Assembly: GCF_009931435.1 (NCBI RefSeq) | Contig: NZ_CP043414.1 | Reading direction: 5' to 3' (one strand) | DNA from: Escherichia coli | GTDB lineage: Bacteria; Pseudomonadota; Gammaproteobacteria; Enterobacterales; Enterobacteriaceae | Length of the DNA stretch: 64,000 nucleotides | In this document: positions 54,535 through 63,919 of the stretch, one piece after another | Position numbering within the stretch: position 1 is the stretch's first letter | Layout: every line of letters starts with the position of its first letter | Notes under the pieces: generated by a model | Told to the model about the DNA's origin: nothing | Seen by the model: the letters and a program-made list of their open reading frames with translations, nothing else | Database searches by the model: none | Position numbers and translations under genes: made by a program

Positions 54535-54792
54535 CTATCCGGCCTGCAACAACTCCAGAGCCATTTGTTTTTCTTCCGGACGCATCCGCTCAATCAACAG
54601 CTTTAACACACCATTCTCCAGCCCGCTGGGCACCAGTGTGTGCGAGTAGGTCAGATTCATCACCCAGGTATGTCCGCACTCGAGACGGGTGCAACGGTAA
54701 TACACATCAGCAAACTGATCGGTTTTCCAGGCTGTTTTCTCAATCACTGCATGTGCACCGCAGCAATGACATCGCGCTTTCTGTCTGCGCAT
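54535..54792 (-). CDS. Ogr/Delta-family zinc-finger late-gene activator (putative)
   Basis: CHCCGAHAV...YYRCTRLECGHTWVM (C-x2-C ... C-x4-C); GGAGG RBS upstream of ATG 54792. Confidence 0.6.
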   Translation of the reverse strand: MRRQKARCHCCGAHAVIEKTAWKTDQFADVYYRCTRLECGHTWVMNLTYSHTLVPSGLENGVLKLLIERMRPEEKQMALELLQAG

Positions 54793-54857
54793 TTTCCACC
54801 TCCCGGAACAGCGTTTTACTGCCACCGATTTTACCCGCTCTTTCCCCATACCGCACA

Positions 54858-55892
54858 TCACTCCATGGGTTCATCAAAATCAAGAATAAATTTCACCTCC
54901 CCCAGTCGTCTGATATCCGGGTCGCTGTTGATCCCCTCCATAATCAGGCGGCGCATCGGGATAACCTCATCCCTGTAATATGCCTCGCGGGATTTCAGTG
55001 GGTCACCAAGCCCGGCCGTATTTGCGGGAATGATGCCGGCAAGCCCGGGTGGAAAACGGTGCGCAACGAGCTGATCCTGGGCACTGATAGTTTTTATATT
55101 CAGGAACTCATCTTTTGTACCTGAATCTCCGATAGGGATCACCTTAACGCCTTCTTTGTCTCCGCCAGGTATATTGATAAACATGGATTTAAAATTGCCC
55201 GCCCCTTTTGACGCCTCTATCTTTTTACGGAATTCCGCCTCGAGCTCGGGATCCATGTCCGGGTCAGTGGAATACAGGATATAACCAAGATGTGCGCCGT
55301 TCTTGTAATACTTGCGGCGAAAGCGGGTGGCATCCACATTCAGCATGGCAGATTCCATCCCGTGAATATAATCCGGGACACCGTAAACCTGCTGTTGCGG
55401 GTCATAAATGGCCACGAACACTACTTCGCCTGGCGGGTAAACGAGATCTTCCAGTGCCGCCTGCACAATCACCGTGCCACCCTCGTTGTTACGCCGCAGG
55501 TACAGAGAAGGTAACGTATGCAGGCGCACCACTCGACCGAAGCCATTGCGCACTTTAAGCAACCCCATATCCCCGAATATCAGCAGATTGGTTACTGCTG
55601 CCGCCATGGCGGCGTGTGTCATACCACCACCCCCCCGAAAACCCTGCATGATCATATTGACGCGCGCACGCAATACCGCGCCGTGATACGGTGCGATATT
55701 GGACAACATGGCGAGATCCATGCGCTCAATGGGCGGCGTGTACCAGCCGTTATAGCCATCCCAGAGCGAGCCGTAATAACAGCCCCATGCAGCGACCGGT
55801 TCCGGGTCACCAAATTCAATAAAAGTCATTTTGCTGGCTGTTTTTTTTGCCACGCCATCGTGTAACACGGGGTATTTTTTCTTTTTACTCAT
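54858..55892 (-). CDS. Phage portal protein (P2 gpQ-like)
   Basis: 344 aa, same length and position as P2 Q, translationally coupled to the terminase gene. Confidence 0.75.
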   Translation of the reverse strand: MSKKKKYPVLHDGVAKKTASKMTFIEFGDPEPVAAWGCYYGSLWDGYNGWYTPPIERMDLAMLSNIAPYHGAVLRARVNMIMQGFRGGGGMTHAAMAAAVTNLLIFGDMGLLKVRNGFGRVVRLHTLPSLYLRRNNEGGTVIVQAALEDLVYPPGEVVFVAIYDPQQQVYGVPDYIHGMESAMLNVDATRFRRKYYKNGAHLGYILYSTDPDMDPELEAEFRKKIEASKGAGNFKSMFINIPGGDKEGVKVIPIGDSGTKDEFLNIKTISAQDQLVAHRFPPGLAGIIPANTAGLGDPLKSREAYYRDEVIPMRRLIMEGINSDPDIRRLGEVKFILDFDEPME

Positions 55893-62299: not shown

Positions 62300-62319
62300 C
62301 AAAATCAGGAGACAAACCA

Positions 62320-63467
62320 TGACATGGCCATCTGTCACGATTGAACAGTACAACACATTCAGCAGTTCACCGGACGGCGTGGAAAATACGCTGCTGTTTG
62401 TGGGCAATGCACAAAACAACAAAGGTGAGGTTCTGCCGGTTAATGCCAACAGCGATCTGGATGAGCTACTGGGAAAGAACGCCAGCCCGCTGAAGAACTT
62501 CCTTCAGTCTGCACTGACCAATGCCGGACAGAATGCCTTTTTCTATGTTGCCGTTCTGCCGGAAGCCGGCAAAGGCAAAGAAGCAACGCCAGCCTGCCAG
62601 GTATGGCAGAACGCCATACTGGCGGCTCAGGAAACTGTTTCAGTTGAAGGCGTGGTGATCACCGAGCCGGTCAGCACGAAGGATGACATCAACGCCATAC
62701 AGGCGTTACGTCAGACCATCATCAATAAATATCAGCGCCGCATCTGGTTCATCCTGACCATCGCCGCCAACGACAACAGTAAAACCTGGGCGGAATACGT
62801 TGCCGAACTGACCGCACTACAGAAAGGCATTGCAGCCCCGCAGGTCATGCTGGTTCCGGAGATTTTTGGATTTGAACCGGGCGTTCTTGCCGGTCGCCTG
62901 TGTAACAGCGCCGTCACCATTGCTGACAGTCCGGCACGTGTGGCAACCGGGCACCTGTCCGCACTGAAAACCACAGAACGCCCGAAAGACAGCACAGGGC
63001 AGGCAATTGATCTCGACACTCTGCAGGCACTGGCAACCGCCCGCTACAGCGTGCCCATGTGGTATGCCGACTATGACGGCCTTTACTGGGCTGACGGTGT
63101 AACACTTGAGGTGGAAGGCGGGGACTACAACGTCATTGAGCATGTCCGCATTGCTGATAAGGTGGCGCGCCGCGTGCGGCTGATGGCCATCCCCAAGATT
63201 GCCGACCGCTCGCTGAACAGCACGCCGGGCAGCATTGCCGCACATGAAACGCTGTTTGCCCGCCCACTGCGTGCCATGGCGAAATCCATGCAAATTAACG
63301 GCATCACGTTTCCGGGCGAAGTGAAATCGCCCCGGAAAGGCGACGTGGTTATCACCTGGCAGGACGAAAAGACGGTCAGCATCAGCATTGTCGTCCGCCC
63401 TTACGCCTGCCCTAAAACCATCAAAGTGGGCATTCAGCTGGATAAATCTCTGGAGGAAAACGCATGA
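62320..63467 (+). CDS. Putative tail sheath-like structural protein (382 aa)
   Basis: Internal ATG at 62320 (MTWPSVTIEQ...); large structural protein directly upstream of a small tube-like protein. Confidence 0.4.
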
Positions 63468-63919
63468 CGACCCGCATTAACGGCATGGCGTTTGACACTT
63501 TTATCGGTGGAACGGATATCCATGTGAAAAGCATCTCACTGGACATCAGCGATGAAAGCGCCGTTGCCAAAACCCGTGGCATCCCTGACGGTAAACTGCG
63601 CGGCCCTGTCAGTGCCGAAGGTGAAATCGAAATGAGTACCCGCAGCTTTAACCAGCTCGGGGAAGTGGCTGCTCAGGCGGGATCGTGGCGTGACCTGCCG
63701 CCAATGGATTTTGTGTTTTACGCCAATACGGGAACCGAAGAAATCCGCGTTGAAGCCTTCGGTTGTGAGCTGATGCTTTCTGGCCTGTTAAGCATTGACA
63801 CCGAGAGCGCAGATCTGACCACGCACAAAATCAAGTACGTGGTGGCAAGCCCTGACTTTGTGCGTATCAACGGCGTGCCCGTTCTCTCAGAGAACGACGT
63901 GCGCGGACTGATGGGGTGA
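63464..63919 (+). CDS. Putative tail tube-like protein (151 aa)
   Basis: Overlapping start (ATGA) with the sheath-like gene. Confidence 0.4.
   Translation: MTTRINGMAFDTFIGGTDIHVKSISLDISDESAVAKTRGIPDGKLRGPVSAEGEIEMSTRSFNQLGEVAAQAGSWRDLPPMDFVFYANTGTEEIRVEAFGCELMLSGLLSIDTESADLTTHKIKYVVASPDFVRINGVPVLSENDVRGLMG

Follow-up and report, generated by a model that had tools for sequence, protein, structure and literature searches.

The late region at 54535-63919 of the window (the whole 64,000-nucleotide stretch of DNA analysed here) very probably belongs to a prophage of Escherichia coli, a temperate myovirus of the HP1 group of the Peduoviridae, and forms the left part of its morphogenesis genes. 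Judged by sequence comparison, its late-gene layout is ordinary for the HP1 branch of the P2 family and is not a new hybrid. The initial annotation had proposed a mosaic phage in which a P2-type head is combined with tail and lysis genes that are organised differently. The tail and lysis order does differ from that of P2, but it is the order already known from the HP1 group; in place of a junction between a P2 head and a foreign tail, synteny comparison with HP1 and P2 revealed collinearity with HP1 throughout the late region.

Gene order and affiliation

All ORFs of the region were confirmed at their coordinates, each gene has a profile match exceeding the curated cut-offs (PHROG, Pfam), and the 11 late ORFs in the window are all full-length, each aligning with its family profile from one end to the other (Table 1). 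The minus strand carries, in order, the large terminase, the portal and an Ogr-like zinc finger; the plus strand carries scaffold, capsid, small terminase, head completion, tail terminator, tail completion, sheath, tube and holin. The same late order is annotated in HP1, K139, F108, SW3, ESSI-2 and vB_YenM_324, and tblastn against HP1-group phages identified collinear homologues gene for gene throughout the late region. We infer the operon structure of the late region and, likewise, that the phage is viable.

Table 1. Features of the prophage in the window, by position
Feature	Position	Strand	Evidence
attL core ACAAAAAACGCGCCCGAAGGTGCGTTG, left prophage boundary between pheL and int	43321..43347	.	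27-nt direct repeat
Tyrosine integrase, P2-Int-like	43434..44456	-	Pfam Int_N and Phage_integrase
Immunity repressor, P2 C-type HTH	44490..44807	-	Pfam HTH_31/HTH_3
gpA-type replication initiation endonuclease (940 aa)	49616..52438	+	phrog_91, 1.4e-276
Ogr/Delta-family zinc finger, putative late-gene activator	54535..54792 (/54861)	-	PF04606, 47.8 bits vs cut-off 26.3; phrog_603, 3.9e-31
Portal (gpQ homologue)	54858..55892	-	phrog_68, 2e-112; PF04860
Terminase large subunit (gpP homologue)	55885..57672	-	Terminase_6N, Terminase_6C and gpP-like Terminase_5 domains
Perfect dyad TTTCGGATAT-N6-ATATCCGAAA, candidate bidirectional late-activator site	57758..57783	.	10-nt arms 100% complementary
Capsid scaffold/protease (gpO homologue)	57867..58757	+	PF05929, 1.9e-40; phrog_73, 6.4e-66
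Major capsid protein, P2 family (gpN homologue)	58772..59785	+	PF05125, 6.9e-83
Terminase small subunit (gpM homologue)	59803..60513	+	PF05944, 1.9e-36; phrog_74
Head completion/head-tail adaptor (gpL homologue)	60612..61106	+	PF05926, 7.7e-27; phrog_71
Tail terminator (gpR-like; HP1 orf21 position)	61116..61589	+	PF06891, 59.6 bits vs cut-off 25; phrog_65, 4.2e-22
Tail completion/neck protein (gpS-like; HP1 orf22 homologue)	61586..62299	+	PF05069, 34.5 bits vs cut-off 24.3; phrog_26, 4.1e-24
Contractile tail sheath (DUF2586; HP1 orf23 homologue)	62319..63467	+	phrog_907, 5.3e-147; PF10758, 1.7e-126
Tail tube (DUF2597; HP1 orf24 homologue)	63464..63919	+	phrog_1182, 1.1e-65; PF10772
Holin 5' end, first gene of the lysis cassette, runs past the window end	63923..64000	+	Translation MQEHERTIITLGILGGIAAASRVLAG

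The HP1 group is characterised by a P2-type capsid gene order and tail genes unrelated to those of P2 (PMC2771037; PMC10612066), and membership is defined by tail proteins that are more similar to HP1 than to P2 (PMC10612066, Table 2), as is the case for the tail proteins of the E. coli prophage. The late-region organisation of the genus Peduovirus (P2/186) is not found in it. HP1 and its group (K139, F108, phiO18P, C5a and others) have an identical late order, with Q and P divergent from O-N-M-L, and share with the prophage the succession past L: terminator, completion, sheath, tube, holin, endolysin, chaperone, tape measure, DUF2590 protein, baseplate J, I-like protein, fibre and the homologues of orf33-35. 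The window, which stops at 64000, contains this order from L to the start of the holin at 63923, and the remaining lysis and tail region is known from near-identical prophages of other strains; beyond the holin, the 99.8%-identical prophage of NZ_CP074819.1 encodes an M15 endolysin, a chaperone, a tape measure protein, and baseplate and fibre proteins. The tail proteins of the group are homologous to those of the prophage (38-57%), although protein identity to HP1 is only 31-57% overall. The prophage also differs in its M15 endolysin, which has no match in HP1 (tblastn), in the presence of extra early cargo and in its host, E. coli.

The closest isolated phages are ESSI-2 of Cronobacter (Seongnamvirus, a genus placed in the HP1 group by Table 2 of PMC10612066), the Escherichia phages ESSI2_ev*, vB_YenM_324 of Yersinia (Tresduoquattuorvirus) and the Salmonella phages SW3 and SI7 (Irrigatiovirus). 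Megablast with 54000-64000 as query gave no match in the phage collection, and these phages were reached only through protein and blastn searches; blastn aligned only 21-32% of 8 kb, at 67-69% identity. In protein sequence, the ESSI-2, YenM324 and SW3 set shares 57-58% identity in the capsid, 58-60% in TerL, 55% in the sheath and 75-77% in the M15 endolysin, with the same gene order and an Ogr-like regulator directly downstream of the portal gene. Unlike the E. coli prophage, in which neither was found, these phages have cI/CII-type early regions and Rz/Rz1 spanins.

Head genes and the boundary after L

Six Pfam families of the head and packaging module of the P2 family score above the curated cut-offs, and the P2 order and orientation are kept: Q and P diverge from O-N-M-L, as had been noted initially and as ORFs and profiles bear out. 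By sequence identity, HP1 is nearer than P2 for most of the head proteins. This holds for the portal (54% to HP1 vs 37% to P2) and for TerL (53% vs 44%), while the capsid is nearly equidistant (31% to HP1, 29% to P2) and has its best phage matches in ESSI-2 and YenM324. Because most head proteins are nearer to HP1, there is no module junction after L. The gpL homologue, whose start at 60612 agrees with the RefSeq model in the NZ_CP074819.1 prophage, is separated from the gpR-like gene by a gap of 9 bp.

Tail and lysis genes

The initial annotation had assigned tail functions to 61116-63919 by position and size, and these assignments are confirmed by profiles and predicted folds; HMM annotation of the segment returned tail functions throughout, not lysis functions. 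The gpR-like tail terminator is 34-41% identical to its counterparts in YenM324 and ESSI-2. The gpS-like protein bears a C-terminal extension and is 28% identical to HP1 orf22 and 31% to P2 S. The sheath (46% identity to HP1 orf23) has no BLAST match to P2 FI, and the tube is 51% identical to HP1 orf24; the Pfam families of both (DUF2586 and DUF2597) differ from those of P2 FI and FII. By tblastn, identity to HP1 is 40% for the tape measure, 57% for the DUF2590 protein, 55% for baseplate J, 48% for the I-like protein and 38% for the orf35-like protein, whereas none of these proteins, nor the sheath or tube, has a P2 match at E<1e-3.

When the sheath, tube, gpR-like and gpS-like proteins were searched by sequence against the PDB, no match rose above chance level; folds were therefore predicted and compared instead. 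The AlphaFold2 (AF2) model of the sheath has a pLDDT of 75.8, and its top 39 Foldseek matches in the PDB are all contractile sheath proteins (best 3hxl, E 2.4e-9), with TM scores of just 0.40-0.45 because domain placement differs. The tube model (pLDDT 78.1) matches tube proteins of phages, PVC, AFP, pyocin and diffocin, as well as Hcp, with TM scores of 0.5-0.6. At the level of predicted models, a sheath fold for the product of 62319-63467 and a tube/Hcp fold for that of 63464-63919 are thus verified.

The region had also been described as lacking a lysis cassette after L. Profile searches indeed found neither X nor any holin or lysozyme gene in the interval that separates L from the tail genes, but the holin begins at 63923, four bases past the tube gene and just outside the segment that had been considered. 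The lysis cassette is present and is displaced to directly after the tube gene, as in HP1. The partial translation of the holin in the window, MQEHERTIITLGILGGIAAASRVLAG, aligns to the YenM324 holin, MQEHEKTFLGLAILGG..., and the NZ_CP074819.1 prophage contains at this position a full-length 98-aa gene annotated as holin, whose identity is 60% to its YenM324 counterpart and 39% to P2 gpY; the M15 peptidase follows, with a 35-aa ORF separating the two.

P2-like genes, lysogeny module and distribution

The prophage has in common with P2 the head and packaging families and their order (Q, P / O, N, M, L), neck proteins of the gpR/gpS families, an Ogr-family zinc finger with equal cysteine spacing and a gpA replication protein. 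P2 differs from it in having X-Y-K-lysA-lysB-lysC between L and R, in encoding sheath and tube (FI, FII, of other families) in a separate F operon, in the position of ogr between D and int, and in using four late promoters with TGT-N12-ACA sites. Going by sequence similarity, the parts that make the E. coli prophage mosaic are int and C, which are P2-type, the holin, and the genes for the fibre tip and its assembly (tfa is 40% identical to P2).

The integration site in E. coli lies between pheL and raiA; the prophage starts at attL and runs past the end of the window. The 27-nt direct repeat is found (26/27) at both ends of the near-identical prophage of NZ_CP074819.1 (E. coli 7_33_46A), at positions 2558-2584 and 43242-43268 of that locus, beside raiA, and so delimits the prophage. 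The phage is not HP1-like throughout: its lysogeny module is P2-type, in contrast to the cI/cII type of HP1 and K139, and the 186/HP1-type cI-cII module, typical of the HP1 group but not defining for it, was not found. The integrase is 54% identical to P2 Int and 35-39% to HP1-group integrases, and the repressor, 51% identical to P2 C, has no match in HP1, ESSI-2 or YenM324; SOS induction is not usual for repressors of the P2 C type. The gpA-type protein is 31-36% identical to gpA of P2, HP1, ESSI-2 and YenM324. Extra cargo in the early region includes ParM/ParR, SPFH and Rrf2. A phage-plasmid lifestyle is unsupported, as a plasmid search recovered only the ParM/ParR-gpA segment in other elements and did not find the virion module. 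This prophage lineage, at the pheL-raiA site, occurs in 42 of 5426 complete E. coli genomes; among isolated phages, capsid identity to it reaches about 58% at most.

Alternative origins of the late region

Two other readings of the region were considered. The absence of BLAST-detectable similarity between its tail genes and those of P2, the distinct Pfam families of sheath and tube, and the existence of P2-like genes (int, C, holin and tfa) could suggest a novel, recent mosaic in which a P2 head module was joined just after L to an unrelated contractile-tail module. However, the succession from L through terminator, completion, sheath and tube to lysis is common to six or more described phages, whose hosts belong to four orders, the head proteins are themselves mostly nearer to HP1, and the P2-like segments lie elsewhere, none of them at the L boundary. 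The split between P2 and HP1 tail modules is, moreover, ancient and already published (PMC10612066, PMC2771037). We regard a recent mosaic as exceedingly improbable; in practice, collinearity with the HP1-group phages refutes it.

It is only marginally less improbable that the region is a defective or cryptic prophage remnant, or a domesticated tail or tailocin cluster, with an odd gene order that arose by deletion of a lysis block. The window covers only the left half of the prophage, and the near-identical prophage of NZ_CP074819.1 has IS66 inserted into one of its early genes and no recognisable Rz/Rz1 spanins, observations that such decay would accommodate. Yet the late ORFs are without exception intact, the gene order is the native one of viable phages, the holin follows at 63923, and in the relative the tail set is complete and the att repeats are intact; the window copy, for its part, has no IS in the DUF4761 gene. 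A tailocin was rejected on the presence of head and packaging genes and the intactness of the ORFs. An integrated HP1-group prophage remains the preferred reading.

A candidate operator between the divergent late genes

The Ogr-like zinc finger that had been noted adjoining Q is real. It is the last gene of the P-Q strand, directly 3' of the portal gene, and its 85-aa product contains CHCC-X22-CTRLEC, in which both the CX2C-X22-CX4C spacing and the 32-residue span equal those of P2 Ogr. Homologues adjoin Q in ESSI-2, YenM324, SW3, K139 and F108, and HP1 has an unannotated Ogr-like ORF beside its portal gene. An ogr homologue between portal and replication genes has been described in K139 and Smhb1 (PMC8537503); the E. 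coli prophage fits this layout, with gpA ending at 52438 and the Ogr-like gene following at 54535-54792.

The P-O intergenic region contains a perfect dyad midway between the two start codons, its centre (57770/57771) 98 bp from that of P and 96 bp from that of O. This geometry is comparable to that of the P2 pP/pO activator site, where the start codon of P is 79 bp, and that of O 95 bp, away from the centre. The dyad arms and spacing are identical in the P-O intergenic region of K139, related dyads are present in the HP1 group, and the ESSI-2, YenM324 and SW3 group has degenerate versions. Among 34 IMG/VR contigs carrying the exact pattern, 32 have it between the TerL and scaffold genes; these carriers include relatives with only 43-59% TerL identity, and their arms are invariant while the spacer varies. 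Within the NZ_CP074819.1 prophage locus the N6 pattern is a single site. In the searchable literature we found no description of the element; looking for the half-site as text turned up nothing but unrelated primers.

The P2 motif TGT-N12-ACA was not found in the P-O region (57673-57866) and is not enriched window-wide, with 13 occurrences observed and 16.3 expected by chance. Consensus scans of 54000-64000 were uninformative, with one sigma-70 promoter-like site (6.8 expected) and 18 terminator-like sites (12.8 +/- 3.5 expected). Activators of the Ogr/Delta family act on late promoters through an upstream dyad, to which they bind, and through contact with RNA polymerase. By analogy with P2 and from its positional conservation, the dyad TTCGGATAT-N6-ATATCCGAA, in place of TGT-N12-ACA, is probably the late-activator site. 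The Ogr-like protein may bind it, probably as a dimer, and would then switch on both divergent late promoters; such a switch would parallel the action of Ogr at the P2 pP/pO site, with a different recognition sequence. There would apparently be one activator site here, compared with the annotated pP/pO, pV and pF sites that serve the four late operons of P2. The half-site spacing of the dyad would be 15 bp, equal to that of TGT-N12-ACA.

A broader proposal has two parts: that in HP1-group phages, the E. coli prophage among them, a single bidirectional region, with a dyad operator bound by the Ogr-like protein, governs all morphogenesis and lysis genes, and that the pheL-raiA lineage is a new genus-level member of the Peduoviridae whose int/C module is P2-type and whose virion module is HP1-type. 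We consider the odds of this combined proposal to be even.

Implications

The late region resolves to a prophage of textbook HP1-group type, and neither the apparently missing lysis genes nor the apparent hybrid tail needs special follow-up. Verified annotations are gained for two Pfam domains of unknown function, DUF2586 as sheath and DUF2597 as tube; in E. coli, RefSeq labels these proteins 'DUF2586 domain-containing protein' and 'phage protein'. The analysis also delineates a lineage of E. coli prophages, located at the pheL-raiA site, to which no isolated phage is close, and for the HP1 group it offers a candidate operator of late-gene activation that can be tested.

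Gene content of the late region

Genes of the late region were identified from an ORF map together with PHROGs and Pfam profile searches. The result agrees gene by gene with the layout in the initial annotation, in which Q (portal) and P (large terminase, TerL) are divergent from O-N-M-L (scaffold, capsid, small terminase (TerS), head completion), tail genes follow L, and an Ogr-like gene lies beside Q. There are no P2-like X, holin or lysozyme genes between L and the tail genes.

Positions of the late-region genes and other features in the window
Feature	Position	Strand	Basis or detail
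Ogr/Delta zinc-finger gene	54535-54792	-	PF04606, 47.8 bits (cut-off 26.3); longest ORF reaches 54861
Portal	54858-55892	-	profile searches
Large terminase	55885-57672	-	profile searches
Perfect dyad	57758-57783		P-O intergenic region
GPO scaffold	57867-58757	+	profile searches
P2-family capsid	58772-59785	+	profile searches
Small terminase	59803-60513	+	profile searches
GPL head-completion protein	60612-61106	+	profile searches
gpR-family tail terminator	61116-61589	+	profile searches
gpS-family tail-completion protein	61586-62299	+	profile searches
Tail sheath	62319-63467	+	phrog_907 'tail sheath'; Pfam DUF2586
Tail tube	63464-63919	+	phrog_1182 'tail protein'; Pfam DUF2597; predicted fold
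Terminator-like hairpin	54483-54471		weak
attL repeat copy	43321-43347
ParM actin-like segregation ATPase	52515-53474		full length; StbA_N 1.8e-82, ParM C 1.6e-68
ParR-like partner	53479-53793
ssrA tmRNA gene	25019-25381	-	tag ANDENYALAA
Integrase beside ssrA	23625-24854	-
AIDA-type autotransporter adhesin	735-5396		1553 aa
MobA/MobL relaxase	15283-16764
Type IV pilin PilS with shufflon-type protein	18107-20186
SMC/AAA-like protein pair	20247-23079

PDB sequence searches with the tail proteins gave no meaningful matches; we therefore gathered and aligned homologues and predicted structures for the tube and sheath. The tube model (mean pLDDT 78) matches exclusively tail-tube and Hcp proteins (TM ~0.5-0.6), among them those of phage 812, cyanophage A-1(L), diffocin, PVC, AFP, pyocin, Mu, and T4. 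For the sheath model (mean pLDDT 76), every one of the best 39 matches is a contractile sheath protein (E-values down to 2.4e-9). The tail assignments in 61116-63919 are thus verified, and the alternative that this stretch encodes lysis or other non-tail functions is not borne out. The gpS-like protein has 237 aa versus 150 aa in P2, and the Pfam family covers only residues 11-123; the ~110-aa C-terminal extension is common to HP1, ESSI-2, and vB_YenM_324 (YenM324), and in K139 is a separate small ORF (orf23).

The motif of the Ogr-like protein, CHCC-X22-CTRLEC, is spaced identically to that of P2 Ogr (CX2C-X22-CX4C). The ogr-like gene is the final one of the P-Q strand and is followed by a weak terminator-like hairpin, a position resembling that of P2 ogr, which closes the F operon. 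The HP1 record (L004, NC_001697) holds an unannotated Ogr-like ORF adjoining the portal gene (~10447-10700(-); tblastn 34%, E 1e-9), with its CxxC and Cx4C halves in separate frames, which indicates that the 1996 record contains a sequencing error or that the frameshift is genuine.

Lysis genes and prophage boundaries

The absence of a lysis cassette directly after L stands, but the lysis genes are displaced rather than missing from the prophage. An ORF starting at 63923, four bases past the tube gene, extends beyond the window end; the 26 residues encoded within the window (MQEHERTIITLGILGGIAAASRVLAG) can be aligned with the protein annotated as the holin of Yersinia phage vB_YenM_324. E. coli 7_33_46A (L003, NZ_CP074819.1) carries a prophage that matches the 10-kb region at 99.8% identity. 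Among 5426 complete E. coli genomes, 42 contain the region, chromosomal in every case. In NZ_CP074819.1 a 98-aa holin and an M15 peptidase endolysin are encoded after the tube gene; next come the tail chaperone, DUF6890 and tape-measure genes, and then those for DUF2590, baseplate J, the I-like protein, and the fibres, with three more tail genes. The prophage ends, between pheL and raiA, are marked by a 27-nt direct repeat (26/27).

Rz/Rz1 spanin homologues were undetected in the E. coli prophage (L003 25702-26520, outside the window), whereas HP1, ESSI-2, YenM324, and SW3 have them at the corresponding place. In L003 the endolysin-to-chaperone gap is just 70 bp. The holin and M15 endolysin genes there are separated by an ORF of 35 aa, cationic and rich in Trp (MLSRREQKAAAIAWKIIRALWYWLRKPQQPHKEQK); as pure speculation, it might be a disruptin-like spanin substitute.

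Relationship to the HP1 group and P2

Gene order was compared with the complete records of HP1, K139, F108, SW3, ESSI-2, and vB_YenM_324. All six share a regulator/portal/terminase set divergent from scaffold, capsid, small terminase, and head completion, continuing with terminator, completion, sheath, tube, holin, endolysin, and then tape measure and baseplate genes. P2, in contrast, has the order L-X-Y-K-lysA-lysB-lysC-R-S, with V-G and FI-D as separate operons and ogr at the far end. HP1-like phages are described as having six capsid genes in P2 order and other structural genes generally without P2 similarity (Lavigne et al., PMC2771037), and K139 is stated to have its ogr homologue flanked by the portal and replication endonuclease genes (PMC8537503). 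Since the literature describes both, tail genes after L and an Ogr-like gene beside Q are standard for the HP1 group. The HP1 group and the P2 subgroup are formally set by tail proteins; Seongnamvirus (ESSI-2) is assigned to the former, and an ancient tail-module difference has been inferred (PMC10612066).

Comparison by tblastn with HP1, ESSI-2, YenM324, and P2 found collinear homologues across the whole late region. Sheath (46% identity to HP1, 55% to ESSI-2/YenM324), tube (51% and 48%), tape measure (40% to HP1), and baseplate J (55% to HP1) have no match in P2. Most head proteins are also nearer HP1 than P2 (portal, 54% versus 37%; TerL, 53% versus 44%; TerS, 40% versus 24%), the capsid being about equally distant (31% versus 29%). 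Given this collinearity and the mostly HP1-like head proteins, there is no recombination junction after L.

The initial annotation had suggested a mosaic phage with a P2-type head and a different tail and lysis organisation. Its observations and tail assignments are sound; the interpretation is only partly supported, as the layout is known and unbroken after L. The integrase and immunity repressor are 54% and 51% identical to their P2 counterparts, whereas counterparts in HP1, ESSI-2, and YenM324 are weaker or absent; the holin (39% to gpY), fibre C-terminus, and fibre assembly protein are likewise P2-like. The phage thus joins P2-type lysogeny and host-recognition genes to an HP1-type virion module, and is mosaic, yet neither at the place nor in the sense first proposed.

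None of the isolated phages is a near relative: megablast against the phage collection returned no match to the region, blastn alignments cover 21-32% of 8 kb at 67-69% identity, and the highest capsid identity is 58%. This is a new HP1-group Peduoviridae prophage of E. coli, undescribed as a phage but of a well-known kind, with a gene organisation already known from that group.

Accessory genes

The ParM/ParR pair lies just past gpA, inside the integrated prophage; the ParM/ParR-gpA segment recurs at 95% identity in plasmid-filed records, including one of 34 kb, where the virion module is absent. Early-region cargo unusual for P2-family phages (47747-48571, 54041-54466, 46964-47230) comprises an SPFH/Band-7 protein, an Rrf2-family regulator encoded convergently to the ogr-like gene, and a small MarR-like protein. 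At the attR end of L003 (39660-43141, outside the window), a YafO-family toxin, an ATP-dependent (OLD-like) nuclease, and a truncated DNA methyltransferase likely form an anti-phage or addiction moron region. Elsewhere (window 1-25381), an integrase and a low-GC island (32-51% GC) encoding the adhesin, relaxase, pilin, and SMC/AAA-like proteins adjoin ssrA.

A candidate late-control site between P and O

TGT-N12-ACA is absent from the P-O intergenic region, which instead holds a perfect dyad, TTTCGGATAT-N6-ATATCCGAAA, in the place of this P2 element. Its centre lies 98 bp from the start codon of P and 96 bp from that of O; the annotated P2 pP/pO activator site lies 79 and 95 bp from them. The P-O region of K139 (L006, 4989-5015 region) has identical arms and spacing, and degenerate versions occur in HP1 (L004 13683-13750), YenM324, and ESSI-2. 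The related prophage L003 contains a single copy in its entire length. A scan of IMG/VR for the exact pattern returned 34 contigs (L009-L042), in 32 of which TTCGGATAT-N6-ATATCCGAA lies exactly between TerL and scaffold homologues; 10 of these 32 are distant relatives (TerL identity, 43-59%), and across the contigs the spacer varies while the arms are invariant. We found no description of the dyad in the searchable literature.

The dyad is a candidate binding site for a regulator acting as a dimer. The most probable such regulator is the Ogr-like activator, which would drive both divergent late promoters; the O operon would be one long transcript of head, neck, tail, and lysis genes. In a prophage of otherwise familiar organisation, this conserved dyad is the sole element that may be worth a small follow-up.
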